Source of the DNA: Escherichia coli
GTDB lineage: Bacteria; Pseudomonadota; Gammaproteobacteria; Enterobacterales; Enterobacteriaceae
Length of the DNA: 64,000 nt
Assembly: GCF_030013595.1 (NCBI RefSeq)
Contig: NZ_CP122768.1
Strand: one strand, 5' to 3'
Position numbers and translations under genes: made by a program. Below, one piece after another: positions 43,427 to 61,016 of the stretch (the stretch's first letter is position 1; each line of letters starts with the position of its first letter). The notes beneath the pieces are model-generated. The model did not search any database. It saw nothing but the letters and a program-made list of their open reading frames with translations, and was not told the origin of the DNA.

Positions 43427-43474
43427 ATACCCCCTCACTATAGGGACACCCCCTAAACTATCACTATAGGGGGG
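43427..43474 (+). promoter_or_regulatory. pair of T3/T7-class promoter-like motifs (CCCCCTCACTATAGGGACA and AACTATCACTATAGGGGGGA)
   Basis: First motif matches the T3 promoter core CCCTCACTAAAGGGA at 14 of 15 positions and the T7 core TCACTATAGGGA exactly; no RNAP gene in the element. Confidence 0.45.
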
Positions 43475-43620
43475 ACCAACCTTGCCTCTGCTTCTGATGC
43501 GTCAGAACACGCGAGGTCCTCCCGACATTAAGTATTCTCCTAAGTAATCAAGGCCCGTGACCGCCTCTGACAGACCTCCTGTATCGACCTCCAGCTCGTT
43601 AGCGTTCTTTAGTCGTCTCG

Positions 43621-43628
43621 GTTAGTAG
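43621..43628 (+). repeat. 8-bp target-site duplication GTTAGTAG (left) of IS66-family copy 1
   Basis: Identical octamer at 46329-46336 immediately outside the IS ends. Confidence 0.8.
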
Positions 43629-43712
43629 GTAACCGGCTCATTTAAACCGTCTGGTCTGTTTCCTCCGGCTCTACAAAAATAATGTCCATCATTTTTTAAT
43701 GGACACTATCGT

Positions 43713-44360
43713 ATGAAACACCGGACCTGGATCACTGAAGCTTTACGTCTTCACTTTGAAGAACATTTACCCCGGGTTGTGGCCGGGCGTCGCCTGGGTG
43801 TACCAAAATCAACAGTTTGTAGTATGTTCGTGCGCTTTCGGAGAGCTGGCCTTTCGTGGCCTTTGCCCGCAGGCATGTCGGAGCAGGAACTTGATGCCTG
43901 CCTTTACGGACAATTTTCCACGGTACCAGTCGTACGTCCTGAAAGCACCGTTATATCCGAAGCCCCCGTGGTAAAAAAACGTCCCCGGCGGCCCAACTTC
44001 CCTTATGAGTTTAAAATCGCCTTAGTGGAGCAGTCACTGCAGCCCGGAGCCTGTGTGGCGCAGATCGCCCGGGAAAACGGAATCAACGATAACCTGCTCT
44101 TCAACTGGCGCCATCAATACCGGAAAGGTGGCCTGCTGCCTTCCGGAAAAAATATGCCGGCACTGCTTCCCGTGACGTTAACGCCGGAGCCGGATAATAA
44201 AATCCCGGCCCCCGCACAGGAACCAGAGCAGATAAATACACCGTCCGACAGTCTGTGTTGTGAGCTGGTTCTGCCGGCCGGAACTCTCAGGCTTAAAGGT
44301 AAACTGACGCCGGCGTTATTACAGACACTTATCCGCGAAATAAAAGGGAGCAGCCACTGA
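43713..44360 (+). CDS. IS66-family accessory protein (orf1, HTH)
   Basis: 215 aa first ORF of the IS. Confidence 0.8.
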   Translation: MKHRTWITEALRLHFEEHLPRVVAGRRLGVPKSTVCSMFVRFRRAGLSWPLPAGMSEQELDACLYGQFSTVPVVRPESTVISEAPVVKKRPRRPNFPYEFKIALVEQSLQPGACVAQIARENGINDNLLFNWRHQYRKGGLLPSGKNMPALLPVTLTPEPDNKIPAPAQEPEQINTPSDSLCCELVLPAGTLRLKGKLTPALLQTLIREIKGSSH

Positions 44361-44707
44361 TGATATCTCTCCCTGCAGGTTCGCGTATCTGGCTGGTTGC
44401 AGGTATCACCGATATGCGAAATGGCTTTAACGGCCTGGCATCAAAAGTTCAGAACGTCCTGAAGGATGACCCGTTCTCCGGACACCTGTTCATCTTCCGC
44501 GGACGCCGGGGTGACCAGATAAAAGTGTTGTGGGCTGACAGTGACGGACTGTGCCTCTTCACCAAACGCCTGGAGCGGGGCCGCTTCGTCTGGCCAGTCA
44601 CCCGTGACGGCAAGGTGCACCTTACTCCGGCTCAGTTATCCATGCTTCTTGAAGGTATCAACTGGAAGCACCCGAAACGAACGGAACGCGCTGGAATCCG
44701 CATATAA
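44360..44707 (+). CDS. IS66-family Orf2 (TnpB-like)
   Basis: 115 aa MISLPAGSRIWLVAGITDMRNGFNGLA..., typical IS66 orf2; start overlaps orf1 stop. Confidence 0.85.
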   Translation: MISLPAGSRIWLVAGITDMRNGFNGLASKVQNVLKDDPFSGHLFIFRGRRGDQIKVLWADSDGLCLFTKRLERGRFVWPVTRDGKVHLTPAQLSMLLEGINWKHPKRTERAGIRI

Positions 44708-44726
44708 CCCGTTGTAAAGTGAGGAT

Positions 44727-46298
44727 ATGGACACCTCACTTGCTCATGAGAACGCCCGCCTGCGGGCACTGTTGCAGACGCAACAGGACACCATCCGCCA
44801 GATGGCTGAATACAACCGCCTGCTCTCACAGCGGGTGGCGGCTTATGCTTCCGAAATCAACCGGCTGAAGGCGCTGGTTGCGAAACTGCAACGTATGCAG
44901 TTCGGTAAAAGCTCAGAAAAACTTCGTGCAAAAACCGAACGGCAGATACAGGAAGCACAGGAGCGAATCAGCGCACTTCAGGAAGAAATGGCGGAAACGC
45001 TGGGTGAGCAATATGACCCGGTACTGCCATCCGCCCTGCGCCAGTCTTCAGCCCGTAAACCGTTACCGGCCTCACTTCCCCGTGAAACCCGGGTTATCCG
45101 GCCGGAAGAGGAATGCTGTCCTGCCTGTGGTGGTGAACTCAGTTCTCTGGGATGTGATGTGTCAGAGCAACTGGAGCTTATCAGCAGCGCCTTTAAGGTT
45201 ATCGAAACACAACGTCCGAAACAGGCCTGTTGCCGGTGCGACCATATCGTACAGGCACCAGTACCTTCAAAACCCATTGCACGCAGTTATGCCGGAGCGG
45301 GGCTTCTGGCCCATGTTGTCACCGGGAAATATGCAGACCATCTGCCGTTATACCGCCAGTCAGAAATATACCGTCGTCAGGGAGTGGAGCTGAGCCGTGC
45401 CACACTGGGGCGCTGGACAGGTGCTGTTGCTGAACTGCTGGAGCCGCTGTATGACGTCCTGCGCCAGTATGTGCTGATGCCCGGTAAAGTCCATGCTGAT
45501 GATATCCCCGTCCCGGTCCAGGAGCCGGGCAGCGGTAAAACCCGGACAGCCCGGCTGTGGGTCTACGTCCGTGATGACCGTAACGCCGGTTCACAGATGC
45601 CCCCGGCGGTCTGGTTCGCGTACAGTCCGGACCGGAAAGGTATCCATCCACAAAATCACCTGGCCGGTTACAGCGGTGTGCTTCAGGCCGATGCTTACGG
45701 TGGTTACCGGGCGTTATACGAATCCGGCAGAATAACGGAAGCCGCGTGTATGGCTCATGCCCGGAGAAAAATCCACGATGTGCATGCAAGAGCGCCCACC
45801 TACATCACCACGGAAGCCCTGCAGCGTATCGGTGAACTGTATGCCATCGAGGCAGAGGTCCGGGGCTGTTCAGCAGAACAGCGTCTGGCGGCAAGAAAAG
45901 CCAGAGCCGCGCCACTGATGCAGTCACTGTATGACTGGATACAGCAACAGATGAAAACACTGTCGCGTCACTCAGATACGGCAAAAGCGTTCGCATACCT
46001 GCTGAAACAGTGGGATGCACTGAACGTGTACTGCAGTAATGGCTGGGTGGAAATCGACAACAACATCGCAGAGAACGCCTTACGGGGAGTGGCCGTAGGC
46101 CGGAAAAACTGGATGTTCGCGGGTTCCGACAGCGGTGGTGAACATGCGGCGGTGTTGTACTCGCTGATCGGCACATGCCGTCTGAACAATGTGGAGCCAG
46201 AAAAGTGGCTGCGTTACGTCATTGAACATATCCAGGACTGGCCGGCAAACCGGGTACGCGATCTGTTGCCCTGGAAAGTTGATCTGAGCTCTCAGTAA
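44727..46298 (+). CDS. IS66-family transposase (orf3)
   Basis: 523 aa with N-terminal leucine-zipper-like region, CxxC...CxxC zinc finger and DDE region. Confidence 0.85.
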
Positions 46299-46328
46299 AT
46301 ATCAATACGGTTCTGACGAGTCGCTTAC

Positions 46329-46336
46329 GTTAGTAG
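46329..46336 (+). repeat. 8-bp target-site duplication GTTAGTAG (right) of IS66-family copy 1
   Basis: Matches 43621-43628. Confidence 0.8.
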
Positions 46337-46582
46337 CTCGTCTACTCACTACATTGGCTTAAGTCTATCACCGCTCACCATCTGGAGTCCTTACAGCTCG
46401 TCCTGACATGCGGTCTCACCTTATATGCACATGGAGAACATGGCCACTCCAGACCAACACTAATCAACATTAACCCTATTCACTTTCGTTAAGCATTTTT
46501 TGGTGGGTCCGTTTGGATGCATTGAATAGGTGCGGACTCCACGTGGAGACAGAAAGTGCTTTACTAAAGGAGCATCCTTTAT

Positions 46583-46972
46583 ATGACTATTAAATCCATC
46601 GTTATCAACGGTAAGACCATCCTGTCTACACCTAACGCCATCAATGAGGGTGTCTGGTTCGACATGCTTGAGGTCCATCAAGCTGCTGGCTTGCCTGCTA
46701 ACAAGACGTTCTCACAGTGGCGCAGCCGACAGTCTCGTGCATTAGAAGAGGCTGGAGAGGTGTCGTTTGACAGTGTACAGAAGACCCTGTGTGGCAGCTT
46801 TGTGGCAGTGCTGGCCTACCTTATGTGGGCGGACCTTACTCTCTGGCTGGCGGTGGTTCGTTACGTTGCGTCTGAGACTATCGGCGTCCTGCCTGACCGC
46901 TTCAAGTCTATCGACGGTGATAACCCCGAGTTAGAAATGTCAGAGGATAACAGCGAGTGGGAGGACTTCTAA
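46583..46972 (+). CDS. KilA-N domain protein (129 aa)
   Basis: N-terminal pattern (INGKTI...NEGVWFDMLEV...GLPANKTFSQW) and hydrophobic WxxxLxxxL segment typical of KilA-N/APSES DNA-binding domains. Confidence 0.5.
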   Translation: MTIKSIVINGKTILSTPNAINEGVWFDMLEVHQAAGLPANKTFSQWRSRQSRALEEAGEVSFDSVQKTLCGSFVAVLAYLMWADLTLWLAVVRYVASETIGVLPDRFKSIDGDNPELEMSEDNSEWEDF

Positions 46973-46973
46973 G

Positions 46974-47714
46974 ATGACCATGAGCCAGCTTGAAGCATTA
47001 CCTATCGTCATCGAGGGTCATTCATTCATCTGCAACGACCAGCGCATGTGGAACCTGAACGAGATTCACCGAGTGTTAGGTCTTCCAGCAAGCAAGATGC
47101 CGTCTGAGTGGAATAACAAGATTCGCACACAACTTGACCGCTCCGGAAATTTCCGGACCGTGAATGGTGACGGCGGTGGTACATGGGCGACCGAGGCTGG
47201 GACCGTGGCTTATGCTATGTGGGTCTCTACAGATTTCTACCTGATGGTCATCAATGCTTTCATCTTTATGCGTAACGACGCAATCGTCCGAGAGCGTGTA
47301 GCGGTCAAACAGGCTGACGAGGCTAACGCTAACCTCTCCATCGCAGCACCTAAGGCAGACATCTTTGACGGTCGTCTGACCAATGGTGGCTCTGTTCCGT
47401 GGAACTGGGCGTGTAAATCTTTGGGTCTTGCCCCGATGAAACTGAAAGAGGGCTTGAAGCGCTCCGGTAAGTTCGTCCAGAAGTGGAACCCTGACAGTTA
47501 CGCCGACGAGCTTCGACCTCAGGAGAAGGCGTTCAGTATTGGACTATTCGTCACTAAGTCAGTCATGGGTAAAGACACATGGCAGGTGACAGCTAAAGGC
47601 TACGCATGGATGCAGGGGAACGCCCAGAAGTGGAGAGAGCTAATAGCTGATGGTGACCGCTTAAAGGCTGCTGAGCGTCGAGCACAGAAGCGTCTTAACC
47701 GTGGAGGTAAGTAG
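46974..47714 (+). CDS. KilA-N domain protein with C-terminal extension (246 aa)
   Basis: Paralogous to upstream ORF (IEGHSFICNDQRMWNLNEIHRVLGLPASKMPSEW... GTWATEAGTVAYAMWVSTDFYLMV). Confidence 0.5.
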   Translation: MTMSQLEALPIVIEGHSFICNDQRMWNLNEIHRVLGLPASKMPSEWNNKIRTQLDRSGNFRTVNGDGGGTWATEAGTVAYAMWVSTDFYLMVINAFIFMRNDAIVRERVAVKQADEANANLSIAAPKADIFDGRLTNGGSVPWNWACKSLGLAPMKLKEGLKRSGKFVQKWNPDSYADELRPQEKAFSIGLFVTKSVMGKDTWQVTAKGYAWMQGNAQKWRELIADGDRLKAAERRAQKRLNRGGK

Positions 47715-47716
47715 TC

Positions 47717-47941
47717 ATGGCTATGATTGACCCTCGTACACCTATCGGCAAAGCGACCCTTCGTTACCGTGGTCTGCCTACACGTCATCTGCTGTCCCTG
47801 CTGAGACTTGGAGTCGAAGACCCCGAACGCCCGTACTACAGTCGAGACGAGCTAATAGCTATGTTGGTGGACCGTGATTTAGACAATCAGTTACGCCGAG
47901 CCTTTGCGAAGTCTAGCGCAGCTAGGGAACTGGAGTCCTGA
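47717..47941 (+). CDS. hypothetical protein (74 aa)
   Basis: ORF tightly coupled to upstream gene (3-nt gap). Confidence 0.4.
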   Translation: MAMIDPRTPIGKATLRYRGLPTRHLLSLLRLGVEDPERPYYSRDELIAMLVDRDLDNQLRRAFAKSSAARELES

Positions 47942-48146
47942 ACCTTATGGGGCAGAAAAACCGCCGCATAAACCTATCGTCTGCTGACCGAAGTTTCGAC
48001 GCATTGAGCCAGACGGAAAAGTTTTCCTGCTGGTAAACCACCTTAATTTAAACACCTTTTGAGAATGACCGATGCGGGGAGACCCGTAGGCATAACTGTG
48101 TCTGCGATACCGATAGTTCTCACCTTCTCAATAGGAGTACTACCTT

Positions 48147-48638
48147 ATGTTATTCAACAACAACGACTGGAAACTATCAGTCACCGACATCAATCCCTAT
48201 GAAAATACTGTGAGTCTGGACGGTCAGTCCTATCCGCTGTCTCTGGCGATTAAGACCCTGATTCCGGGCTACCTGTCAGGCTTACCGTCCACCAGCCGCG
48301 AGGCGATGGAGTTACTGGAAGCTCTGGCTGAAGCTGGCGTGTCCATTGGCAACTTCTTCAGTAATGACCTGATGACCGCCTATGGTCGCCGCCAGCAGAA
48401 CAAGCGAGCCGAAGCTGAGCGTATTGCTAAAGAGCAGCGCATTCAGGCTGAGCGTATGCGTGAAGAGAACATGACTGATGCAGAGTGGCAGAAAGAGCTA
48501 CAGCGCCGTGAACAGGTCAAAGCTGAACGCCGGACCTATGGTGAGCACCTCCGCAGTGCTACCCATTCCGCTGGGCGCTCCCGTGCTTCTATGGTCGCTG
48601 ACATTGAGTCCACGGACAACTGGATGGACAGCCTCTAA
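48147..48638 (+). CDS. hypothetical coiled-coil protein (163 aa)
   Basis: C-terminal half highly charged and heptad-like (RRQQNKRAEAERIAKEQRIQAERMREENMTDAEWQKELQRREQVKAERR). Confidence 0.5.
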   Translation: MLFNNNDWKLSVTDINPYENTVSLDGQSYPLSLAIKTLIPGYLSGLPSTSREAMELLEALAEAGVSIGNFFSNDLMTAYGRRQQNKRAEAERIAKEQRIQAERMREENMTDAEWQKELQRREQVKAERRTYGEHLRSATHSAGRSRASMVADIESTDNWMDSL

Positions 48639-48704
48639 GACACAGACACACAAGTGGTCCTGACCTGATGTCGGGACCCACAGTATCCAAACTAATTTAG
48701 GAGA

Positions 48705-49700
48705 TTGATTATTATGACGATTAAAGACGCTTTCCAGTTCGGCATTGAGCCAGTACGTATCAGCGACACCGACAACATTCAGATTAACGAAGGTTTGCCA
48801 ACTAACGCAGACCCGCAGGTCTATGCCCTCCAGTTAGCTAAGACGGTTAAGGCTATGCTGAACGGTGTACTTAAAGACGCTCAAGAGAACATCCCGTTCC
48901 CTGTAGAAGTCCTGCCGACCCGCAATAGCCTGCCTACTCCAATCATTGCTCACACTCTGGCTGATCGCTCTGTGGTCGTTCCTGTCCGTGGTGGTAAGCG
49001 ACCTGAAGTCGTGACCGTTCCGTCTGGACAAGAAATCGTGGTCGAACCAATCGAGCAGGCTATTCTCATCTCTGAGCAGACCAAGCTCTGGGACGCCAAG
49101 TCATCCACCGGATTCACTCAGGGCACACTTCAGCAGGACGCTATGAACATCTGTGAGAATGTGGTCCGTACCATCAACGCTCGCATGGTCGACGTTCTGG
49201 AGTCCTCCAAACTGTTGAAGACCGTAGAGCTGCCAGTCCTGACTGGAAGCCTGACCACTAAGGCAGACGCTATCATGGACGCTCTGTTTGAGAACACCGA
49301 GTCCTCTTTCGGCTCTGAAGTGTCTGATTACGGCATCATCGCCCATGAGTCCCAACTGAAAGCGCTGTCCCGTCTGGCAGCTAAACAGGGCTTCTCTGGT
49401 GGAGACGCTATCGTGGATATGCTGGGTACCGACATCGCCTATTACAACGGTGAAGACAAGGGTGTATTCATGCTGGCTAAACGCTTCACGGCCCTGAGCT
49501 TCGGCTGCTTCCGTCACGACGGTGAGAATATTACGGTCGTCCTTTCACGTGATGGCGACTCTCAGTCCCACGACTTGGAAATCCTCGGTAAAGTGTTCGT
49601 TGTCGCTGAAGCTGCTACGACCATCAAGATGGGCACTGGCTCAGCTACTGCCGTCCTGCCTGTAGTCAAACGCCTGAAGTTCACCAAGACCGAAGCGTAA
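48705..49700 (+). CDS. hypothetical protein (331 aa), possible structural/morphogenetic protein
   Basis: Largest non-integrase ORF of the element; follows the coiled-coil ORF; AGGAG Shine-Dalgarno upstream; no motif I can assign. Confidence 0.5.
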   Translation: MIIMTIKDAFQFGIEPVRISDTDNIQINEGLPTNADPQVYALQLAKTVKAMLNGVLKDAQENIPFPVEVLPTRNSLPTPIIAHTLADRSVVVPVRGGKRPEVVTVPSGQEIVVEPIEQAILISEQTKLWDAKSSTGFTQGTLQQDAMNICENVVRTINARMVDVLESSKLLKTVELPVLTGSLTTKADAIMDALFENTESSFGSEVSDYGIIAHESQLKALSRLAAKQGFSGGDAIVDMLGTDIAYYNGEDKGVFMLAKRFTALSFGCFRHDGENITVVLSRDGDSQSHDLEILGKVFVVAEAATTIKMGTGSATAVLPVVKRLKFTKTEA

Positions 49701-49844
49701 GACCAATGGGTAAGAGGTAAGTCTGGACTGAATATCAGCAGGACTTCAGGTGGTGGCCTGTCACTGTGATTAACTAACTACGGTCTGGACCAATGGTCTG
49801 GGCCTTATTACTGGTATGGTAGTATACAGGCGAAGGAGGACCCA

Positions 49845-50000
49845 ATGTCTATGACTTCCGCAGACCTAAGGTCCCTCCTGACTCTGGTCTATAAACTCGT
49901 GTTCCTCTCTGTGGGTCTCTACATGGTTCTCTCTGGTCGACTCGGTGTGGATGTGTTCGACACTCTGTCTAAGGCTGTGGGTGGACTTCTAGGTCCTTAG
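49845..50000 (+). CDS. small single-pass membrane protein (51 aa)
   Basis: ATG with AGGAGGA Shine-Dalgarno; MSMTSADLRSLLTLVYKLVFLSVGLYMVLSGRLGVDVFDTLSKAVGGLLGP; below ORF-track cutoff. Confidence 0.4.
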   Translation: MSMTSADLRSLLTLVYKLVFLSVGLYMVLSGRLGVDVFDTLSKAVGGLLGP

Positions 50001-50153
50001 GTTTGGACTCACAGTGGGACCGATGATTTCTGACAGAAAAATGTGAATGACCATCTAATACATTAAGCCAGCAGACTTCCCCCCATAGTCCCGCCTCAAG
50101 TCCAGACCGAGGCCACCGGGGGTCCTGACCAGCCGTCTAGACATCCCGTCTAA

Positions 50154-50186
50154 TGACACAAGTCTGGCACAAAGCCTGACACAAAG
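50154..50186 (+). repeat. three 11-bp-spaced direct repeats TGACACAAG / TGGCACAAAG / TGACACAAAG (putative arm-type sites, right arm)
   Basis: Same motif and orientation as 40968-40987 at the opposite end of the element. Confidence 0.5.
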
Positions 50187-50241
50187 TCCTTGACTCAATG
50201 CAGGACCTCAGGCCTACTAAGGGTCCGCTTCAAGTCCTTGA

Positions 50242-50252
50242 AGTTCCAGATG
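50242..50252 (+). repeat. right copy of 11-bp direct repeat AGTTCCAGATG
   Basis: Identical to 40801-40811. Confidence 0.8.
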
Positions 50253-51652
50253 AACTTAATGGGCACATCCAGTTTATCTTTGCCGCGGACGCCGTCGCGG
50301 ATTGCCGTCATTTGCGGGCCATGATCGATAGCATCCGTCCAGCTGAAGCAGGAGATTGACGTTTTGACCGGATTATCCAGCACCGGTAGGCGTTCTATGG
50401 TAATGGTATAGGTCGATTCACGCGCGCCACTATTCCCGCCGCTGATGCCGACATTGCCCGTCAAAATAGGCAACATAGCAATAGCGCGTGCGGTCAGCTC
50501 ACCGTTTGCCTGGCGTTGCGGCCCCCAGCCCTGGCAGATATAAGCGGGTTTTGCTGTGCCAATTTCACGCGCCAGTTTGATGATACGGTCCACCGGGATA
50601 CCGGTAATTTGCGAAGCCCACTGCGGCGTTTTCGCTGTTTTATCGTCACCTTCACCAAGAATATAGGCTTTATAGTGACCATTTTTTGGTGCATCTGCGG
50701 GTAAGGTTTTTTCGTCATAGCCGACGCAGTATTTATCAAGAAAAGGTTGATCAACGAGATTTTCGTTAATCAATACCCAGGCAATACCCGCAACCAGCGC
50801 GGCATCGGTGCCCGGGCGAATAGGAAGCCATTCGTCTTCACGACCGGCAGCCGTATCGGTATATCGCGGATCGATAACAATCATTTTTGCGTTCGATTTC
50901 TCGCGCGCTTTTTCAAGAAGATAAGTGATGCCACCACCGCTCATGCGGGTTTCTGCCGGGTTGTTACCAAACATCACGACCAGCTTGCTGTTTTCAATAT
51001 CCGTGGTGCTGTTGCCATCATTACTGCCGTAGGTGTAGGGCATGGCACAGGAAATTTGCGCGGTGCTGTAGGAGCCATACTGGTTGAGTGAGCCGCCGTA
51101 GCAGTTCATCAGGCGTTTGACCGCCGAGGCGGATGGCGAAGAGCGGGTCATATTGCCGCCAACAATCCCCGAAGAGTACTGAATATATACAGCCTCATTG
51201 TCATATTGTTCGACGGTTTTTTTCAGGCTACTGGCGATAGTATCCAGGGCTTCATCCCAGCTAATCCGTTCGAATTTGCCTTCGCCGCGTTTGCCCACGC
51301 GTTTCATTGGGTAATTCAAGCGGTCGGGATGATTAATACGCCGACGGATGGAGCGACCGCGCAAACAGGCGCGTACTTGATGATTGCCATACTCATCGCT
51401 GCCGGTGTTGTCAGTTTCCACCCAGGTCACTTCATTATCTTTAACATGCAGACGAAGTGCACAGCGGCTACCACAGTTGACGGAACAGGCACCCCAGACC
51501 ACTTTCTCGCTGGCCTGTTGTACTGCTGCCGCTGCACTGCGCAGGGTGAACGGTAAAGAAAAACCGCCTGCAGCCAGCGCCAGAGAACCTATCGCGGTAG
51601 ATTTAACGAGTGTTCTGCGGCTGATGCCCACCATTTGTTCATTTTTGGACAT
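50242..51652 (-). pseudogene. ynfE: ynfE 5' fragment (Tat signal and N-terminal about 465 codons)
   Basis: MSKNEQMVGISRRTLVKSTAIGSLALAAGG twin-arginine leader; homology to YnfF ends at ...LDVPIKFIWN where the insert begins. Confidence 0.85.
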
Positions 51653-51751
51653 AACTCACTCCCTGTTCTTTATCGTTATATAAAAGTTTATATATTGAAT
51701 ATTTAGCGCGCTAACAATAGAGGGAGTCTACCTATTTTGGGTTAAGAATTA

Positions 51752-51765
51752 TTAATCCATATCAA
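51752..51765. promoter_or_regulatory. FNR-like site TTAAT-CCAT-ATCAA upstream of ynfE
   Basis: 9 of 10 match to TTGAT-N4-ATCAA, about 107 bp upstream of the ynfE ATG; the ynfEFGH-dmsD operon is known to be anaerobically induced. Confidence 0.35.
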
Positions 51766-51850
51766 TAGAAGGGTATGAGTAATAAAGTGGGATTATGTTG
51801 TATGTTCAAATCGCCGGATGTGTCGTATCCGGCGTGCTGTCGATAATGTG

Positions 51851-52156
51851 TTACTGCGGTTCGGCAGGCGCGCCATCCTGGGTAGACTGCGCGGGAGCAG
51901 AGACGTTACCGCTGGTGGTGCGGGTGTAGAGAATTTTATGCGTATCATTAGCGCAATGCCCGACGACCTGGGAATCAGGCTGATCAACCTGGTCATTGGG
52001 TACAATACTTAACGTGAAGCTGCTTTCGGGAACGCCATTATTGATAATGCGCTGTGATATATCGCTCTGTATGCGCTCACAGGATCCCGGCGCGGCGAGT
52101 ACCGCGGGTGAGGCGAGGGCGAGCAGAAGCGCGGCACAGCAGGTTGAGAGTTTCAT
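51851..52156 (-). CDS. ynfD: DUF1161 periplasmic protein YnfD
   Basis: Start MKLSTCCAALLLALASPAVLA (signal peptide), 101 aa. Confidence 0.8.
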   Translation of the reverse strand: MKLSTCCAALLLALASPAVLAAPGSCERIQSDISQRIINNGVPESSFTLSIVPNDQVDQPDSQVVGHCANDTHKILYTRTTSGNVSAPAQSTQDGAPAEPQ

Positions 52157-52263
52157 CATAAGCTCCTTACGCGAAGATAACTTCTTTAAGCATAGCATTT
52201 AACGTGTAAAGTACTGTATTTGCTACTATGATTGAGAATCATCTCTACTCTCTGGTGACTGTT

Positions 52264-52974
52264 GTGAAATACAAATTACTGCCATGCTTACTCGCGATAT
52301 TCCTCACAGGATGTGACCGCACAGAGGTAACACTTTCATTTACCCCTGAGATGGCCAGTTTCTCTAATGAATTCGATTTTGATCCGCTGCGTGGTCCGGT
52401 AAAAGATTTCACTCAGACATTAATGGATGAGCAAGGTGAAGTGACGAAACGTGTTTCTGGGACTTTGTCGGAAGAAGGCTGTTTTGATTCACTCGAATTA
52501 CTGGATCTGGAAAATAATACCGTGGTCGCTCTGGTACTGGACGCCAATTATTACCGTGATGCCGAGACGCTGGAGAAGAGAGTACGTTTACAGGGAAAAT
52601 GCCAGCTAGCAGAATTACCTTCTGCCGGGGTGAGTTGGGAAACCGATGATAATGGCTTCGTGATTAAAGCCAGCAGCAAACAGATGCAGATGGAATATCG
52701 CTATGATGATCAGGGGTATCCGCTGGGTAAAACCACGAAAAGTAACGACAAAACATTATCTGTCAGCGCCACGCCATCAACGGATCCGATCAAAAAATTA
52801 GATTACACAGCGGTTACTTTACTGAATAATCAACGGGTTGGTAATGTAAAACAGAGCTGTGAATATGACAGTCACGCCAATCCGGTGGACTGTCAGCTAA
52901 TCATTGTTGATGAAGGAGTAAAACCCGCCGTCGAACGGATTTACACCATCAAAAATACTATCGATTATTATTAA
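52264..52974 (+). CDS. ynfC: UPF0257 lipoprotein YnfC
   Basis: GTG start giving MKYKLLPCLLAIFLTGC lipobox; 236 aa. Confidence 0.75.
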   Translation: MKYKLLPCLLAIFLTGCDRTEVTLSFTPEMASFSNEFDFDPLRGPVKDFTQTLMDEQGEVTKRVSGTLSEEGCFDSLELLDLENNTVVALVLDANYYRDAETLEKRVRLQGKCQLAELPSAGVSWETDDNGFVIKASSKQMQMEYRYDDQGYPLGKTTKSNDKTLSVSATPSTDPIKKLDYTAVTLLNNQRVGNVKQSCEYDSHANPVDCQLIIVDEGVKPAVERIYTIKNTIDYY

Positions 52975-52976
52975 TG

Positions 52977-53537
52977 CTATTGTGCGGTCGGCTTCAGGAG
53001 AGTCTGACCCGGTGTTTTGTGCTCTGCCAGATACTGATGCTGGAATATACACATGCGAATAGCATTACGATATTGACCATTAATAAAAAACTCATGCATC
53101 AATTCACCTTCAACCGTAAAGCCAAGCTTGCGGTAAATGTGAATCGCTTTTTCATTCTCTTTATCAACGATCAGATACAGCTTATAGAGATTGAGAACGG
53201 TGAAGCCATAGTCCATTGCTAATTTGGCGGCACGGGTTGCCAGACCTTTCCCTTGATACTCCGGGGAGATAATTATCTGAAATTCTGCGCGGCGATGAAC
53301 ATGGTTAATTTCCACCAGCTCCACCAGACCGGCTTTTTCGCCGTCACATTCCACCACAAAGCGCCGTTCGCTCTGATCGTGAATATGCTTATCGTACAGA
53401 TCAGAGAGTTCAACAAAGGCTTCGTAGGGTTCCTCAAACCAGTAACGCATCACACTGGCGTTATTGTCGAGTTGATGTACATAGCGTAAATCTTCACGCT
53501 CCAGCGGGCGTAGCTTAACACTGTGGGCGCTTGGCAT
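52977..53537 (-). CDS. speG: spermidine N1-acetyltransferase
   Basis: 186 aa GNAT protein, [39 protein letters not shown]. Confidence 0.9.
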
Positions 53538-53571
53538 AACGTGTCCTTACATTCCTTAAATCAATAACAGG

Positions 53572-53913
53572 TTAGGGGGTAATAACGCGGCCAGTTCGAC
53601 GGTCCAGGCAGCGCAAAGTATTTGGCTCCCAGTAGGCATTGATGTTGGCGCTTTGCTCACATTTATCGCGGTTATCAAAAGCGGCGTCGGCTTTATCCCA
53701 CTCTTTTTCAGTGCGTTTATTCACTTTCTGGCGCAGATTGCGCGTGTCATTCCATTGCTCTTTTTCCATAGCGGCGTGCTGGCGGCTTTGTGCACTGTCG
53801 CCAGACTCAATCACCAGTTTGTTAGTTTCGGCATGAACAGTTGTGCTCAATGCCAGTGCGCAAGGCAGCAGAAAAGCGAGCAGGCCAATTCGTTTGCTGA
53901 GAGTAATTTTCAT
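53572..53913 (-). CDS. ynfB: UPF0482 secreted protein YnfB
   Basis: 113 aa with signal peptide; K-12 synteny. Confidence 0.8.
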
Positions 53914-54047
53914 AATTCATTCCCTGTATGAATGATTAAAGGTGATTCTACACCATCCACTGCGAACGCAAAACGTACCAGGAGGATGTTTATATTGATG
54001 ATATTATGTCGTCCTATAACTATACATGATGTCAATAAGTGACAAAG

Positions 54048-54374
54048 ATGATTAAAACAACGTTACTATTTTTTGCTACTGCGCTGTGTGAAATTATTGG
54101 ATGCTTTCTGCCCTGGTTGTGGTTAAAACGAAACGCCAGTATCTGGCTGTTACTTCCGACGGGGATTTCTCTGGCACTGTTTGTCTGGTTGTTAACGTTG
54201 CATCCTGCGGCGAGTGGGCGTGTTTACGCGGCTTATGGTGGCGTTTATGTCTGCACGGCGTTGATGTGGCTGCGCGTTGTGGATGGCGTGAAACTGAGTC
54301 TTTATGACTGGACGGGGGCATTGATTGCGCTTTGCGGCATGTTGATCATTGTTGCGGGCTGGGGGCGCGCGTAA
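54048..54374 (+). CDS. ynfA: UPF0060 membrane protein YnfA
   Basis: Start [26 protein letters not shown]; 108 aa, four TM. Confidence 0.8.
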
Positions 54375-54579
54375 GGACATAAATCCATTTTATCAATAAG
54401 ATACAAGGAAGTGTCAGCTGACAAAAGGTATTCTATTTCATCTTTTGTCAACCATTCACGGCGCAAATATACGCCTTTTTTTGTGATCACTCCGGCTTTT
54501 TTCGATCTTCATACTTGTATGGTAGTAGCTCAGTTGCGTAGATTTCATGCATCACGACAAGCGATGCAAGGAATCGAAC

Positions 54580-55794
54580 ATGAAGATCGTAAAGGCTGAA
54601 GTTTTTGTTACCTGTCCGGGGCGTAATTTCGTCACATTAAAAATCACCACTGAGGACGGTATTACGGGCCTTGGGGATGCCACCCTCAATGGACGTGAGC
54701 TTTCCGTGGCCTCTTATTTGCAGGATCACCTTTGTCCGCAGCTTATTGGTCGCGATGCGCACCGTATCGAAGATATCTGGCAGTTTTTCTATAAAGGTGC
54801 TTACTGGCGTCGCGGCCCGGTGACGATGTCGGCCATTTCAGCGGTTGATATGGCGCTGTGGGATATTAAAGCCAAAGCTGCCAACATGCCGCTTTACCAG
54901 TTACTAGGCGGCGCGTCTCGTGAAGGGGTGATGGTTTATTGCCATACCACCGGTCACAGTATTGATGAAGCTCTGGATGATTATGCTCGTCATCAGGAGC
55001 TGGGATTCAAAGCCATCCGCGTGCAGTGCGGAATCCCTGGTATGAAAACCACCTACGGCATGTCGAAAGGTAAAGGTCTGGCTTATGAACCCGCAACTAA
55101 AGGACAGTGGCCGGAAGAGCAGCTGTGGTCGACGGAGAAATACCTCGATTTCATGCCGAAATTGTTTGACGCGGTACGTAACAAGTTTGGTTTTAATGAA
55201 CATTTGCTGCATGACATGCACCATCGCTTAACGCCTATTGAAGCGGCGCGCTTTGGTAAAAGCATTGAAGATTATCGCATGTTCTGGATGGAAGACCCGA
55301 CGCCTGCGGAAAACCAGGAATGCTTCCGTCTCATTCGCCAACATACCGTCACACCCATCGCGGTGGGTGAAGTCTTCAACAGCATCTGGGACTGCAAGCA
55401 ACTGATTGAAGAGCAACTTATCGATTATATCCGCACTACGCTGACCCACGCGGGTGGTATTACCGGTATGCGCCGGATTGCCGATTTTGCTTCGCTGTAT
55501 CAGGTACGTACTGGCTCACACGGTCCTTCCGATTTGTCACCAGTCTGCATGGCTGCGGCGCTGCACTTTGATCTGTGGGTCCCCAATTTCGGTGTCCAGG
55601 AATACATGGGTTATTCCGAACAAATGCTCGAAGTCTTCCCGCACAACTGGACTTTCGATAACGGCTATATGCATCCGGGAGACAAACCGGGTCTTGGCAT
55701 CGAATTCGATGAAAAGCTGGCGGCGAAATATCCCTATGAACCTGCTTATCTGCCAGTCGCACGTCTGGAAGATGGCACGCTGTGGAACTGGTAA
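54580..55794 (+). CDS. rspA: starvation-sensing protein RspA (enolase-superfamily dehydratase)
   Basis: Start [40 protein letters not shown]; 404 aa. Confidence 0.9.
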
Positions 55795-55805
55795 GGAGTA
55801 AGATA

Positions 55806-56825
55806 ATGAAAAGCATTTTAATTGAAAAACCGAATCAACTGGCAATTATCGAACGCGAAATACCCATCCCGTCAGCGGGTGAAGTACGAGTAAAAGTGAA
55901 ACTTGCCGGAATTTGTGGTTCAGATAGCCATATTTATCGTGGGCATAATCCTTTTGCGAAATATCCGCGCGTCATTGGTCATGAATTCTTTGGCGTCATT
56001 GATGCAGTGGGTGAAGGCGTGGAAAGCGCCAGAGTCGGTGAACGCGTTGCTGTCGATCCGGTGGTCAGCTGTGGGCATTGCTATCCGTGCTCTATAGGTA
56101 AGCCGAACGTTTGTACGACACTGGCTGTATTAGGTGTGCACGCTGACGGTGGTTTCAGTGAATATGCCGTGGTGCCGGCAAAAAATGCGTGGAAAATTCC
56201 TGAAGCAGTGGCCGATCAATATGCGGTGATGATCGAACCTTTTACCATTGCGGCTAACGTTTCCGGTCATGGTCAACCGACTGAAAATGATACCGTTCTG
56301 GTTTACGGTGCCGGTCCAATCGGCCTGACGATCGTTCAGGTATTAAAAGGCGTCTATAACGTTAAAAATGTGATTGTTGCCGATCGCATTGATGAACGAC
56401 TGGAAAAAGCGAAAGAGAGCGGGGCAGACTGGGCGATTAATAACAGCCAGACACCGCTTGGCGAGATTTTCGCTGAAAAAGGCATAAAGCCGACATTAAT
56501 TATCGATGCGGCTTGTCATCCTTCTATCCTGAAAGAGGCTGTAACGCTGGCTTCTCCGGCGGCACGTATTGTATTGATGGGGTTCTCCAGTGAACCGTCT
56601 GAAGTGATTCAGCAAGGAATTACCGGAAAAGAACTCTCTATTTTTTCTTCACGCTTAAATGCAAATAAATTCCCGGTCGTTATCGACTGGTTAAGTAAAG
56701 GGTTAATTAAACCAGAAAAATTAATTACCCATATGTTTGATTTCCAGCATGTTGCTGATGCCATTAGTTTATTTGAACAGGATCAAAAACATTGCTGCAA
56801 AGTCTTACTCACTTTTTCTGAATAA
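55806..56825 (+). CDS. rspB: starvation-sensing protein RspB (Zn-dependent alcohol dehydrogenase family)
   Basis: Start MKSILIEKPNQLAIIEREIPIPSAGEVRVKV; GHEFFG and Cys-rich zinc motifs; 339 aa. Confidence 0.9.
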   Translation: MKSILIEKPNQLAIIEREIPIPSAGEVRVKVKLAGICGSDSHIYRGHNPFAKYPRVIGHEFFGVIDAVGEGVESARVGERVAVDPVVSCGHCYPCSIGKPNVCTTLAVLGVHADGGFSEYAVVPAKNAWKIPEAVADQYAVMIEPFTIAANVSGHGQPTENDTVLVYGAGPIGLTIVQVLKGVYNVKNVIVADRIDERLEKAKESGADWAINNSQTPLGEIFAEKGIKPTLIIDAACHPSILKEAVTLASPAARIVLMGFSSEPSEVIQQGITGKELSIFSSRLNANKFPVVIDWLSKGLIKPEKLITHMFDFQHVADAISLFEQDQKHCCKVLLTFSE

Positions 56826-56882
56826 TACCAATAACGGCGAGTAAGTAGTACGCATCTTACCTCTTTTTTAGAGATAACCATT

Positions 56883-56975
56883 ATGACAATAGAAAAACAC
56901 GAAAGAAGCACTAAGGATTTGGTGAAAGCAGCAGTATCGGGATGGCTGGGCACAGCGCTTGAATTTATGGATTTC
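56883..56975 (+). pseudogene. ydfJ: 5' remnant of an MHS-family transporter gene (ydfJ-like) truncated by prophage insertion
   Basis: ATG at 56883 encodes MTIEKHERSTKDLVKAAVSGWLGTALEFMDF (MHS-family G-x-A-L-E-F-x-D-F N-terminal motif), then reads KSHTCQLFDKY-stop. Confidence 0.55.
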
Positions 56976-57012
56976 AAGAGTCATACGTGTCAACTATTTG
57001 ATAAATATTAAA

Positions 57013-57801
57013 TTAATTTTTCATTGCTTCGTTATGGGGCATGGTTGGGGCAAACTCGCTTAACTGTGTATTTAACAAAGCTACCTGTGCATTATTGTTT
57101 TCAGACATCCATTTTCCGTATACCTGAAATACCATTTGCGCATCTGCATGGCCCATCTGGTTTGCTATAAATGCCGGGTTAGCACCAGCTGTCAGCGACC
57201 AGCAGGCATAAGTATGTCTCGACTGATATGATTTTCGATGGCGGAGTCCGGCACGTTTTATCGCTGCGTCCCACATCTGCCTTATTGAGTCAACGGTAAA
57301 ATGGTCACCATAATTTTTTACTCTCGCTGACACTTCAGGTTGAAAAACAAAGGTGCATTTATGTTTTTCTGTTCTGCCATACTCTCTGAGGTGAACATCA
57401 ATGATATGCTCTTTGCTCAGTCTCGTTAATGTCATCTGACTCCGGAGAGCGTCGATTGCTGGCTTAATAAGATGAATGACCCGATTGGTTCCCGCCTGTG
57501 TTTTTGGTACCGTGAAACGGTCTTTTGCTAAATTTCTCCTGATCATCATTGTTCCATTTTTCAGATCTATGTCCTCCCATCCAAGTGCACACAGCTCACC
57601 AGGGCGAACGCCAGTATAAACAGAAACACACCATAAATTTTTGGCTTGCTGATTTCTGCACGCATCGATAAGACGGATGAATTCCTCCCGCGAAAGAGGA
57701 TCCGGAATGGTTCTTGATTCCTTTAATGGCGAGATCCCCTTAAACGGGTTATCTGCCAGGTAACCGTTATCAACACCAAACTGGAACACGGCGTTAAGAT
57801 T
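57013..57801 (-). pseudogene. lambdoid prophage tyrosine integrase, 3' (catalytic) fragment, separated from 5' part by IS66 copy 2
   Basis: Contains integrase motifs (RPGELCALGWEDID, HIIDVHLREYGRTEK, SRHTYACWSLTAG, HADAQMVFQVYGKW); reading continues in frame from 60502-61016 across the 8-bp TSD. Confidence 0.8.
57794..57801 (+). repeat. 8-bp target-site duplication TTAAGATT of IS66-family copy 2
   Basis: Identical octamer at 60502-60509 outside the other IS end. Confidence 0.8.
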
Positions 57802-57831
57802 GTAAGCGACTCGTCAGAACCGTATTGATAT

Positions 57832-59403
57832 TTACTGAGAGCTCAGATCAACTTTCCAGGGCAACAGATCGCGTACCCGGTTTGCCGGCCAGTCCTGGAT
57901 ATGTTCAATGACGTAACGCAGCCACTTTTCTGGCTCCACATTGTTCAGACGGCATGTGCCGATCAGCGAGTACAACACCGCCGCATGTTCACCACCGCTG
58001 TCGGAACCCGCGAACATCCAGTTTTTCCGGCCTACGGCCACTCCCCGTAAGGCGTTCTCTGCGATGTTGTTGTCGATTTCCACCCAGCCATTACTGCAGT
58101 ACACGTTCAGTGCATCCCACTGTTTCAGCAGGTATGCGAACGCTTTTGCCGTATCTGAGTGACGCGACAGTGTTTTCATCTGTTGCTGTATCCAGTCATA
58201 CAGTGACTGCATCAGTGGCGCGGCTCTGGCTTTTCTTGCCGCCAGACGCTGTTCTGCTGAACAGCCCCGGACCTCTGCCTCGATGGCATACAGTTCACCG
58301 ATACGCTGCAGGGCTTCCGTGGTGATGTAGGTGGGCGCTCTTGCATGCACATCGTGGATTTTTCTCCGGGCATGAGCCATACACGCGGCTTCCGTTATTC
58401 TGCCGGATTCGTATAACGCCCGGTAACCACCGTAAGCATCGGCCTGAAGCACACCGCTGTAACCGGCCAGGTGATTTTGTGGATGGATACCTTTCCGGTC
58501 CGGACTGTACGCGAACCAGACCGCCGGGGGCATCTGTGAACCGGCGTTACGGTCATCACGGACGTAGACCCACAGCCGGGCTGTCCGGGTTTTACCGCTG
58601 CCCGGCTCCTGGACCGGGACGGGGATATCATCAGCATGGACTTTACCGGGCATCAGCACATACTGGCGCAGGACGTCATACAGCGGCTCCAGCAGTTCAG
58701 CAACAGCACCTGTCCAGCGCCCCAGTGTGGCACGGCTCAGCTCCACTCCCTGACGACGGTATATTTCTGACTGGCGGTATAACGGCAGATGGTCTGCATA
58801 TTTCCCGGTGACAACATGGGCCAGAAGCCCCGCTCCGGCATAACTGCGTGCAATGGGTTTTGAAGGTACTGGTGCCTGTACGATATGGTCGCACCGGCAA
58901 CAGGCCTGTTTCGGACGTTGTGTTTCGATAACCTTAAAGGCGCTGCTGATAAGCTCCAGTTGCTCTGACACATCACATCCCAGAGAACTGAGTTCACCAC
59001 CACAGGCAGGACAGCATTCCTCTTCCGGCCGGATAACCCGGGTTTCACGGGGAAGTGAGGCCGGTAACGGTTTACGGGCTGAAGACTGGCGCAGGGCGGA
59101 TGGCAGTACCGGGTCATATTGCTCACCCAGCGTTTCCGCCATTTCTTCCTGAAGTGCGCTGATTCGCTCCTGTGCTTCCTGTATCTGCCGTTCGGTTTTT
59201 GCACGAAGTTTTTCTGAGCTTTTACCGAACTGCATACGTTGCAGTTTCGCAACCAGCGCCTTCAGCCGGTTGATTTCGGAAGCATAAGCCGCCACCCGCT
59301 GTGAGAGCAGGCGGTTGTATTCAGCCATCTGGCGGATGGTGTCCTGTTGCGTCTGCAACAGTGCCCGCAGGCGGGCGTTCTCATGAGCAAGTGAGGTGTC
59401 CAT
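57832..59403 (-). CDS. IS66-family transposase (orf3)
   Basis: 523 aa product identical to 44727-46298. Confidence 0.85.
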
Positions 59404-59422
59404 ATCCTCACTTTACAACGGG

Positions 59423-59770
59423 TTATATGCGGATTCCAGCGCGTTCCGTTCGTTTCGGGTGCTTCCAGTTGATACCTTCAAGAAGCATGGATAACTGAGC
59501 CGGAGTAAGGTGCACCTTGCCGTCACGGGTGACTGGCCAGACGAAGCGGCCCCGCTCCAGGCGTTTGGTGAAGAGGCACAGTCCGTCACTGTCAGCCCAC
59601 AACACTTTTATCTGGTCACCCCGGCGTCCGCGGAAGATGAACAGGTGTCCGGAGAACGGGTCATCCTTCAGGACGTTCTGAACTTTTGATGCCAGGCCGT
59701 TAAAGCCATTTCGCATATCGGTGATACCTGCAACCAGCCAGATACGCGAACCTGCAGGGAGAGATATCAT
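59423..59770 (-). CDS. IS66-family Orf2 (TnpB-like)
   Basis: 115 aa identical to copy 1. Confidence 0.85.
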   Translation of the reverse strand: MISLPAGSRIWLVAGITDMRNGFNGLASKVQNVLKDDPFSGHLFIFRGRRGDQIKVLWADSDGLCLFTKRLERGRFVWPVTRDGKVHLTPAQLSMLLEGINWKHPKRTERAGIRI

Positions 59771-60417
59771 CAGTGGCTGCTCCCTTTTATTTCGCGGATA
59801 AGTGTCTGTAATAACGCCGGCGTCAGTTTACCTTTAAGCCTGAGAGTTCCGGCCGGCAGAACCAGCTCACAACACAGACTGTCGGACGGTGTATTTATCT
59901 GCTCTGGTTCCTGTGCGGGGGCCGGGATTTTATTATCCGGCTCCGGCGTTAACGTCACGGGAAGCAGTGCCGGCATATTTTTTCCGGAAGGCAGCAGGCC
60001 ACCTTTCCGGTATTGATGGCGCCAGTTGAAGAGCAGGTTATCGTTGATTCCGTTTTCCCGGGCGATCTGCGCCACACAGGCTCCGGGCTGCAGTGACTGC
60101 TCCACTAAGGCGATTTTAAACTCATAAGGGAAGTTGGGCCGCCGGGGACGTTTTTTTACCACGGGGGCTTCGGATATAACGGTGCTTTCAGGACGTACGA
60201 CTGGTACCGTGGAAAATTGTCCGTAAAGGCAGGCATCAAGTTCCTGCTCCGACATGCCTGCGGGCAAAGGCCACGAAAGGCCAGCTCTCCGAAAGCGCAC
60301 GAACATACTACAAACTGTTGATTTTGGTACACCCAGGCGACGCCCGGCCACAACCCGGGGTAAATGTTCTTCAAAGTGAAGACGTAAAGCTTCAGTGATC
60401 CAGGTCCGGTGTTTCAT
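59770..60417 (-). CDS. IS66-family accessory protein (orf1)
   Basis: 215 aa identical to copy 1. Confidence 0.8.
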   Translation of the reverse strand: MKHRTWITEALRLHFEEHLPRVVAGRRLGVPKSTVCSMFVRFRRAGLSWPLPAGMSEQELDACLYGQFSTVPVVRPESTVISEAPVVKKRPRRPNFPYEFKIALVEQSLQPGACVAQIARENGINDNLLFNWRHQYRKGGLLPSGKNMPALLPVTLTPEPDNKIPAPAQEPEQINTPSDSLCCELVLPAGTLRLKGKLTPALLQTLIREIKGSSH

Positions 60418-60501
60418 ACGATAGTGTCCATTAAAAAATGATGGACATTATTTTTGTAGAGCCGGAGGAAACAGACCAGACGGTTTAAATGAGCCGGTTA
60501 C

Positions 60502-61016
60502 TTAAGATTTGTCATGTAATTATTTACAGTTACAGCCGATCTACCTGGTTGTGTAACAATATAGTTACTTTTGGGGCTCTGGTATCCAGTCAGTAGCTCT
60601 TTACGAACCTCCAGTAATTTTTCTTTATTAATCGATGAGGCAAGATTTTTTTCACCGATTATGCTCAGGATATTTTTGATGACGGCACGGTATGTGTTGA
60701 GTGATGTTTTTGCGACTTCAGTTTCTTTCAGTGCCAGAAATTTTTCAGCCAGTTCTTTTATGGTTAAATCTTGTCGGGTCTCACCAAATTTTTCCAGATT
60801 GCGTGAGGAGGGAAACTGTTTTGCATAGTCGAAAACACCAGTTTTTATTGCGTAACAAACAGAGGCGCGTAGCTCACCTGCAACGCGCCTGTTTTTTGCT
60901 GTGTCAGGAACCCCCAGGTTTTCCCTGACTCTTACGCCTTTATAAACAAACCAGATACGTAATTTCCCTCCATGGTTTTCCACGCCTGTCGGATATTTCA
61001 TTTCAACTTCTCTCAT
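60502..61016 (-). pseudogene. lambdoid prophage integrase, 5' fragment (N-terminal arm-binding domain)
   Basis: MKYPTGVENHGGKLRIWFVYKGVRVRENLGVPDTAKNRRVAGELRASV, typical phage integrase N-terminus; ORF terminates at a stop supplied by the IS end. Confidence 0.8.

Follow-up and report, generated by a model that had tools for sequence, protein, structure and literature searches.

The window, the 64-kb stretch of Escherichia coli DNA that was analysed, contains two inverted sister copies of the insertion sequence ISCro1 (IS66 family), which very probably (about 0.9) entered two adjacent integrated mobile elements by separate transpositions and, in their inverted arrangement, would be able to flip the intervening 11,473 bp. 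The demonstrated basis of this reading includes: (i) the identity of the copies, their target duplications and their family membership, (ii) the empty sites of a relative (strain OkiPb01717) and the un-inverted state of the window, and (iii) an inversion of like kind in that relative.

The pair forms the sole large inverted repeat detected by a repeat search of the whole 64-kb window, with arms at 43626-46328 and 57802-60504 and a spacing of 11473 nt; the 3 bases by which the arms run past the IS ends into the flanks match by chance. Copy 1 (43629-46328, + strand) is 2700 bp in length, with GTAACCGGCTCATTTAAACCG as IRL and the complement of GTAAGCGACTCGTCAGAACCG as IRR, and copy 2 (57802-60501, - strand) is its exact reverse complement. 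An earlier note on this DNA had described two identical inverted IS copies and asked for a comparison of nucleotides; the comparison finds 2700/2700 nt identical, and the coordinates given in that note are all exact. A perfect repeat of 2.7 kb is impossible by chance. Each copy is bordered by a perfect 8-bp target duplication of its own, with GTTAGTAG at 43621-43628 and 46329-46336 for copy 1 and TTAAGATT at 57794-57801 and 60502-60509 for copy 2.

The genes of the element are arranged in the layout of the IS66 family, with tnpA, tnpB and tnpC in succession, every ORF uninterrupted and all three above the NCBIfam equivalog cut-offs for the IS66 TnpA, TnpB and transposase. In copy 1, these are tnpA (43713-44360, + strand, 215 aa; NF038385, 296 bits versus a cut-off of 150), tnpB (44360-44707, + strand, 115 aa; NF033819, 128.9 bits versus 50) and the IS66-family transposase gene tnpC (44727-46298, + strand, 523 aa; NF033517, 477.9 bits versus 180), while tnpC (57832-59403), tnpB (59423-59770) and tnpA (59770-60417) of copy 2 are all on the - strand. 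The end of tnpA and the start of tnpB meet at 44360 in the motif TGATG, a 1-nt overlap that would allow translational coupling. The IS ends (GTAACCGGCTCATTTAAACCG and GTAAGCGACTCGTCAGAACCG) start with GTAA and match at 16/22 of their first positions as imperfect terminal repeats; imperfect terminal inverted repeats beginning with 5'-GTAA are a trait of the IS66 family (ISfinder; Han et al. 2001). An 8-bp duplication is found for both window copies and for 9 further ISCro1 copies in relatives. The element is 99.8-99.9% identical over its full length to 11 RefSeq copies annotated as ISCro1, a name that rests on labelling by NCBI's pipeline. The RefSeq label of the full-length matches (rounding to 100.0%) is 'IS66-like element ISCro1 family transposase', with tnpA and tnpB, and these matches are 2699 bp versus the 2700-bp query, which corresponds to one gap. 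The three equivalog matches, the GTAA ends, the 8-bp duplication and the RefSeq ISCro1 label together bear out the IS66-family assignment made in the earlier note. ISCro1 is present at full length in 1492/5426 complete E. coli genomes; it was first named in Citrobacter rodentium ICC168, a genome with 24 copies (PMC3072379).

Both target sites are empty in OkiPb01717, where GTTAGTAG (L002 6554-6561) and TTAAGATT (L002 24691-24698) are each present as a single 8-mer and the flanks match base for base; the spacer that harbors copy 1 is likewise uninterrupted in other genomes, and strains such as CD45 and PSJ-12 have the ynfE element in an IS-free form. Thus, the two insertions were independent, in agreement with the earlier proposal of two transpositions, each with its own matched duplication. 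The companion claim, that the arrangement is not a product of recombination, also holds, as the blocks of the region are collinear with GPEC1258 and OkiPb01717 and both ynfE fragments are on the - strand. In this reading, each transposition used TnpC with the accessory proteins TnpA and TnpB and created its own 8-bp duplication. Junction queries of 5426 complete E. coli genomes reveal none that shares the copy 1 site and none with the exact copy 2 site (the nearest insertion is 8 bp away), and a scan that took one representative genome from each species provides 0 matches to the exact junctions. No obvious target motif is apparent among the 13 duplications collected. The sequence ACTGGAA was considered as a target motif and is near two hot spots, but its offsets differ and its occurrence is judged a coincidence.

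The window copies have two private variants in common that are missing from 11 ISCro1 copies in 9 other strains, which argues that the window copies are sisters. The first is one additional T in a homopolymer (T5/T6, 43687-43692), and the second is a G>A change at 45251 in tnpC, which is synonymous. The profile match of tnpA begins at residue 3, and the extra T upstream leaves the conserved protein untruncated. Instead of one window copy giving rise to the other, both could have descended from a third that lies outside the window. The intact ORFs and ends, the identical, fresh-looking copies and the unique sites suggest recent transposition activity, and the copies may still be active.

The perfect identity, or one of the copies, would be an artefact of assembly if a repeat had been collapsed or duplicated or if consensus polishing had made the copies uniform. 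The 100% identity is in keeping with such an origin, as is the common homopolymer T, which is found in none of the other copies examined and is typical of a long-read indel error spread by polishing. By contrast, each copy has precise ends and its own perfect 8-bp duplication, and the flanks rejoin into sequence that is uninterrupted in other genomes, features that an assembler would not create. An artefact is, thus, very unlikely, and any real differences that were erased would be few. Consensus polishing can contribute in part to the perfect identity of repeat copies in an assembly, and both the identity of the window copies and their common T could be partly due to polishing across the repeats.

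Copy 1 is inside the ynfE-borne element, as the earlier note had placed it, and lies between two putative att cores (repeat D14): AGTTCCAGATGGACT at 40801-40815, which forms the left end of the element and is where the ynfE C-terminal fragment ends, and AGTTCCAGATGAACT at 50242-50256, which forms the right end and is within the potentially invertible segment. The element is ~6.7 kb in size, bears an integrase and itself splits ynfE. Its cargo ORFs have no significant PADLOC or NCBIfam matches, and the PHROGs matches are limited to the integrase and a KilA-N/Ant-like regulator. The view that each copy hits a mobile-element gene stands for copy 2, which is in an integrase gene, but not for copy 1, which is intergenic. 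The latter is positioned 226 bp after the stop of one ORF (42902-43402) and 246 bp before the next (46583-46972), and no ORF of at least 80 aa spans the restored junction. Across strains, ISCro1 is noted at five or more sites of the ynfE element, two of them 1 bp apart. A separate observation is that twin look-alikes of T7-type phage promoters (43424-43476, + strand) are located ~160-190 bp upstream of the copy 1 insertion point, with TCACTATAGGG cores at 43435 and 43461 and G runs after TCACTATA at 43443 and 43469. One of the twin cores matches the annotated phi10 promoter of the K1F-like phage EcoDS1. The literature searched includes no direct precedent for satellites or islands with T7-type promoters, which is not proof of novelty.

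Copy 2 is in the tyrosine integrase gene of a prophage at the Qin site, beside rspB. Excising the IS together with one duplication in silico restores a full-length integrase frame, consistent with the earlier placement of this copy inside the prophage integrase. The restored frame joins a C-terminal fragment (57013-57801, - strand), also recognized from the annotation of relatives, to an N-terminal arm-binding fragment of ~169 codons (60502-61016, - strand). The intact integrase gene of strain IrN is 1281 bp; in the annotation of relatives, the corresponding gene is labelled a tyrosine integrase and adjoins an excisionase, and the equivalent N-terminal fragments of GPEC1258 and RS571 are annotated as 'Arm DNA-binding domain-containing protein'. 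Copy 2 accounts for the integrase being a pseudogene and separates the arm-binding from the catalytic portion of the enzyme. Since the integrase is split, autonomous excision should be lost, and the prophage should not excise on its own. In many other strains, this int/xis module harbors ISCro1, ISEc8 or an IS3-family element. Within this 1.6-kb module, ISCro1 alone is noted at at least 12 distinct sites across strains, with three independent events within 16 bp.

The segment between the copies (46329-57801, 11,473 bp) is potentially invertible, as judged from the repeat search, and is in its ancestral orientation, as judged from collinearity. On the ynfE side, it includes the attR-bearing right half of the ynfE element and the ynfE N-terminal fragment; this is followed by ynfD, ynfC, speG, ynfB, ynfA, rspA and rspB, and then, on the prophage side, by a short remnant, ydfJ', the attL region of the prophage and the C-terminal part of the integrase (gene names are from the RefSeq annotation of collinear relatives). 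The inverted repeats needed for inversion are present, 2700 nt in length, 100% identical and 11,473 nt apart. RecA-type homologous recombination between the identical copies could flip the 11,473 bp, and such a flip would leave two att sites, attR from the ynfE element and attL from the prophage, in reversed orientation relative to their partners. The potential for inversion raised in the earlier note is backed by a precedent in the same element family, and the window segment may invert likewise in this strain. In OkiPb01717, the ISCro1 pair of the ynfE element is flanked as GAACATGG-IS-GCTTCCAG and CCATGTTC-IS-CTGGAAGC, which are reciprocally swapped duplications, and the segment inside the inverted pair aligns to the window in reverse. 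Thus, a real ISCro1-ISCro1 inversion has occurred in that relative.

The OkiPb01717 precedent also lends some weight to a reading in which an earlier recombination or inversion event involving the copies produced the window arrangement. An odd number of flips, however, would leave swapped duplications and would move the stretch that runs from the N-terminal part of ynfE to rspB onto the other strand, whereas the window duplications are matched and the stretch is collinear. A net inversion is, thus, ruled out by the matched duplications and the native synteny. An even number of flips would leave no trace; in the single assembly, the segment is un-inverted, and a flip would be either absent or one of an even number. 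As an account of the arrangement, earlier recombination is highly improbable. Scarcely credible is an origin as a composite transposon, in which the IS pair and the intervening DNA (ynfD-rspB) arrived as one 16.9-kb unit: the identical inverted copies do bracket the segment with their IRL ends outward, but the outer 8-mers differ (GTTAGTAG and TTAAGATT) and every IS is bordered by a matched pair of its own, ynfD through rspB are in the native order and neighbourhood seen in strains without these IS copies, and both single-IS empty sites exist in OkiPb01717, such that, with no common outer duplication and a cargo that is native chromosome in place, this origin is refuted.

Separate insertion of two sister copies, thus, remains the preferred reading. 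The IS pair is real, correctly read and already known in kind, and is an example of ordinary bacterial genome wear. Current understanding is unchanged, as IS-mediated inversions and IS elements in prophage integrases are textbook knowledge. In practical terms, the 17-kb region is difficult to assemble and able to exist as two inversion isomers, an inversion that would immobilise both of the neighbouring elements. The comparative yield is a documented ISCro1-ISCro1 inversion in the ynfE element family, evidence for recurrent ISCro1 targeting of the prophage int/xis module and a lead that the ynfE element bears authentic-looking promoters of K1F-like phages, which would open to direct test whether phage polymerase drives the expression or replication of a chromosomal island.

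A more ambitious reading, considered unlikely, is that ISCro1 prefers the integration/regulatory modules of integrated elements, that copy 1 parts K1F/T7-type promoters from the cargo of a satellite or defence island, and that the pair represents the silencing of both elements together with an att-scrambling switch. If true, the ynfE element would be an undescribed satellite or defence island whose transcription or replication is driven by the RNA polymerase that a T7-like phage supplies on infection, and copy 1, ~160 bp downstream of the twin promoters, would separate these promoters from the cargo. The IS pair would then be the mark of two silenced mobile elements and a recombination switch that scrambles their att sites.

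Among known systems, Tn5 and Tn10 have the same geometry of inverted IS arms, and the window resembles these composite transposons in the placement of identical, inverted IS copies around a segment; by contrast, the window is without a common outer duplication, and nothing in it points to movement as a unit. Inactivation of prophage integrases by IS elements (locking or domestication) is described for IS-rich E. coli lineages and is similar to the splitting of the Qin-site integrase by copy 2; apart from the site TTAAGATT, which no genome of the searched collection shares, this case has nothing distinctive. In IS-mediated chromosomal inversions, identical inverted IS copies likewise serve as substrates of homologous recombination, as exemplified by the ISCro4-mediated 0.59-Mb inversion in C. 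rodentium (PMC3072379). The window differs from the ISCro4 type in that the inversion is a potential only, the segment is 11.5 kb and the end points are in mobile elements that are already disrupted. Compared to ISCro1 as described, the window copies share the tnpA-tnpB-tnpC layout, the imperfect terminal repeats that start with GTAA and the 8-bp duplications, and they fit a tendency of the element to reside in other mobile elements, as reported for the IS elements of C. rodentium (PMC3072379). The window version is distinguished by a length of 2700 versus 2699 bp, the extra T falling within the loop of a small hairpin that precedes tnpA, and by one synonymous change in tnpC.

The two ISCro1 copies of the window are exact reverse complements: 43629-46328 (copy 1, plus strand) matches 57802-60501 (copy 2, minus strand) at 2700 of 2700 nt by direct comparison. 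Direct comparison also finds each copy bounded by its own target duplication, GTTAGTAG at 43621-43628 and 46329-46336 for copy 1 and TTAAGATT at 57794-57801 and 60502-60509 for copy 2; thus, the earlier note, which had read two identical inverted copies with separate duplications, was right to the base. A repeat finder returns the copies as the single inverted pair of 40000-64000 and the sole large inverted repeat of the whole window, and no further full or partial ISCro1 copy was found within the 64-kb window. Three uninterrupted ORFs (215, 115 and 523 aa) lie on one strand of the element and match the NCBIfam equivalog models of IS66 TnpA (296 bits; cut-off 150), IS66 TnpB (128.9 bits; cut-off 50) and IS66-family transposase (477.9 bits; cut-off 180), respectively. 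With these three matches, imperfect inverted repeats that begin GTAA and a target duplication of 8 bp, the family assignment of the earlier note is borne out, and the pair belongs to ISCro1 and the IS66 family by every feature tested.

The copies are the product of two separate insertions. In strain OkiPb01717, both target sites are empty: one GTTAGTAG and one TTAAGATT are present, and every flanking base agrees with the window. The copy 1 spacer has matches in 130 genomes, in several of which the alignment is continuous across the insertion point. GPEC1258 and OkiPb01717 align collinearly with the window throughout the region, and both fragments of ynfE are on the minus strand; thus, there is no net inversion in the window. 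The empty sites, matched duplications and collinearity uphold the earlier proposal of two independent transpositions rather than a recombination product. None of the 5426 complete E. coli genomes has ISCro1 inserted at either site of the pair, and scanning species-representative genomes for the window IS junctions gave no match.

Compared with 11 ISCro1 copies of nine other strains, the window element has two private differences, each present in both copies: an extra T in the T-run at 43687-43692 and a synonymous G>A at 45251 in tnpC. These shared variants argue for copies 1 and 2 being sister copies. A small hairpin (TGTCCAT ... ATGGACA; 43683-43713 in copy 1, 60417-60447 in copy 2) just upstream of the tnpA ATG has the T-run in its loop, with T6 in the window copies versus T5 in the other 11. 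In the T5 copies the RefSeq tnpA start is 30 nt further upstream (678 bp versus 648 bp in the window), an ATG that the extra T places out of frame in the window copies. The TnpA profile match starts at residue 3 of the 215-aa ORF and, thus, the extra T removes no conserved protein. The extra T could be a real change or a homopolymer sequencing error or polishing artefact.

Inverted repeats are substrates of homologous recombination, which is the basis of the inversion potential of the pair. The copies bound a potentially invertible 11.5-kb segment, seen in one orientation in a single assembly; a flip would be expected to misorient the attR of the ynfE element and the attL of the prophage relative to their partner sites. 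In the ynfE element of OkiPb01717 there are two inverted ISCro1 copies (6670-9368 and 12175-14873 of L002, the equivalent locus), one flanked by GAACATGG and GCTTCCAG and the other by CCATGTTC and CTGGAAGC, with the two duplications reciprocally swapped. The DNA between these copies aligns reversed to the window (46436-46589 to L002 12174-12029; 48044-48172 to L002 9494-9371), while the outer flanks align forward. The swapped duplications and reversed inner segment form the signature of an IS-IS inversion; judged from its sequence, the OkiPb01717 pair (L002 6670-14873) is a completed ISCro1-ISCro1 inversion and a direct precedent.

Copy 2 splits the tyrosine integrase gene of a prophage that the annotation of relatives places at the Qin site beside rspB. 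Deletion of copy 2 and one duplication restores a single long minus-strand frame, annotated in relatives as a tyrosine integrase beside excisionase, exonuclease, ydfD and dicB; strains IrN and 7/2 carry the gene intact, at 1281 bp. The N-terminal fragment (60502-61016, ~169 codons) is annotated as an arm DNA-binding domain in relatives, and copy 2 cuts the remainder (57013-57801) off from the N-terminal codons. Self-excision of the prophage is presumably lost through copy 2. Between rspB and the integrase stop, a short ORF start (MTIEKHERSTKDLVKAAVSGWLGTALEFMDF, 56883-56975) resembles the N-terminal end of K-12 ydfJ and may be a remnant left when the prophage integrated, in line with the ydfJ' of the earlier note.

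Copy 1 resides in a small element whose integration has split ynfE, with the C-terminal fragment of the gene ending near 40815, the N-terminal fragment beginning near 50242, and a 15-bp direct repeat, AGTTCCAGATGRACT, at both element ends (putative att cores, 40801-40815 and 50242-50256). Among the ORFs of the element, one encodes a 514-aa tyrosine integrase and another a KilA-N/Ant-like protein; no family matches were found for the rest. Copy 1 is intergenic, 226 bp past ORF 42902-43402 and 246 bp ahead of ORF 46583-46972, and no ORF of at least 80 aa crosses its restored junction. Thus, the earlier view that each copy hits a mobile-element gene stands for copy 2 and fails for copy 1. Just after the element's integrase gene are three tandem 44-bp repeats (42645-42776; two identical, one 80%) that appear iteron-like. 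Just within each element end is a cluster of short GACACAA-type repeats (40959-40988 and 50094-50185), which could be arm-type integrase binding sites. The paralogous ynfF (37301-39727) and ynfE fragments (39785-40951 and 50195-51652) form direct repeats of 71-77% identity, a divergence that makes recombination between them unlikely.

Both neighborhoods are recurrent ISCro1 targets. In the int/xis module of the Qin-site prophage (57013-61016), compared with equivalent loci of relatives (L001, L004-L009 and L012-L014), ISCro1 occupies at least 12 distinct sites across E. coli strains. The duplications include ACACGGCG in RS571 and CTCTGAGG, GGTTGAAA, TTATTAAT, GGATATTT and TTTCAGCC in other strains; further sites are in the xis-int interval (strain 7/2 and many others), in xis itself (IrN and others) and close to the integrase 3' end (E110019). 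In one search, 67 genomes had an ISCro1 end in range of the 3' part of the integrase. ACACGGCG is used twice, in opposite orientations (RS571 versus GPEC1258), and directly abuts the window's TTAAGATT; thus, three independent events fall within 16 bp. Of the distinct sites counted for orientation, the window's own included, nine are oriented as copy 2 and two are opposite. ISEc8 and IS3-family elements are also noted in the Qin-site integrase of GPEC1258 and OkiPb01717. The ynfE element family has ISCro1 at five or more sites. Among these, the insertions of GPEC1258 (ACTGGAAA, L001 10698) and OkiPb01717 (CTGGAAGC, L002 14874) are 1 bp apart, independent and in opposite orientations, where the counterpart of window ORF 48147-48638 begins (equivalent to ~48165-48172), and ES5 has another within its counterpart of ORF 42902-43402; at all of these sites the window is without ISCro1. 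Behind this recurrence may be weak counter-selection of insertions into prophage DNA, a target preference for the region, or both.

The copy 1 spacer includes two exact TCACTATAGGG cores on the plus strand, 26 bp apart (43435-43445 and 43461-43471), where chance predicts 0.48 cores with up to one mismatch in the whole window. The second core, in the context CTAAACTATCACTATAGGGGGGACCAA, is near-identical to the phi10 promoter annotated in Kayfunavirus EcoDS1, a K1F-like phage (ACTAAACTATCACTATAGGGAGACCAAG / ACTAAACTATCACTATAGGGAGA), and similar sequences occur at 1024 places in 218 phage records, most of them ~40-kb K1F-like phages (mostly Kayfunavirus) with four to six sites each; the first core is T3-like in look. 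The twin motif (43424-43476) is kept in the elements of OkiPb01717 (L002 6354-6408) and ES5 (L003 6197-6250). The primary origin of T7 also uses twin phage promoters. As a lead, these motifs suggest that the RNA polymerase of a T7-like phage, on infection, reads and perhaps replicates the ynfE element, possibly a satellite or defence island under that polymerase's control; a literature search for satellites or islands with T7-type promoters found no precedent. Copy 1 is ~160 bp downstream of the twin motifs, ahead of the cargo ORFs, which suggests that the downstream genes are now cut off by it from the putative phage promoters.

Arrival as a composite transposon is ruled out for the window pair: the outer flanks carry different 8-mers, and the enclosed genes are in their native context, so a defining feature of such transposons is absent. 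The element itself matches 2911 of 5426 complete E. coli genomes by megablast, at up to 34 places per genome for any match, and is full-length in 1492, on chromosomes and plasmids; the annotation of the full-length matches reads 'IS66-like element ISCro1 family transposase'. The name ISCro1 comes from Citrobacter rodentium; at 24 copies it is the IS that has expanded most in that genome, where other mobile elements house more than half of all IS elements and IS-mediated inversions are shown experimentally (PMC3072379). Thus, by its full-length distribution, annotation and naming, the element is a known and common IS, and everything about the inverted pair is already known in kind.
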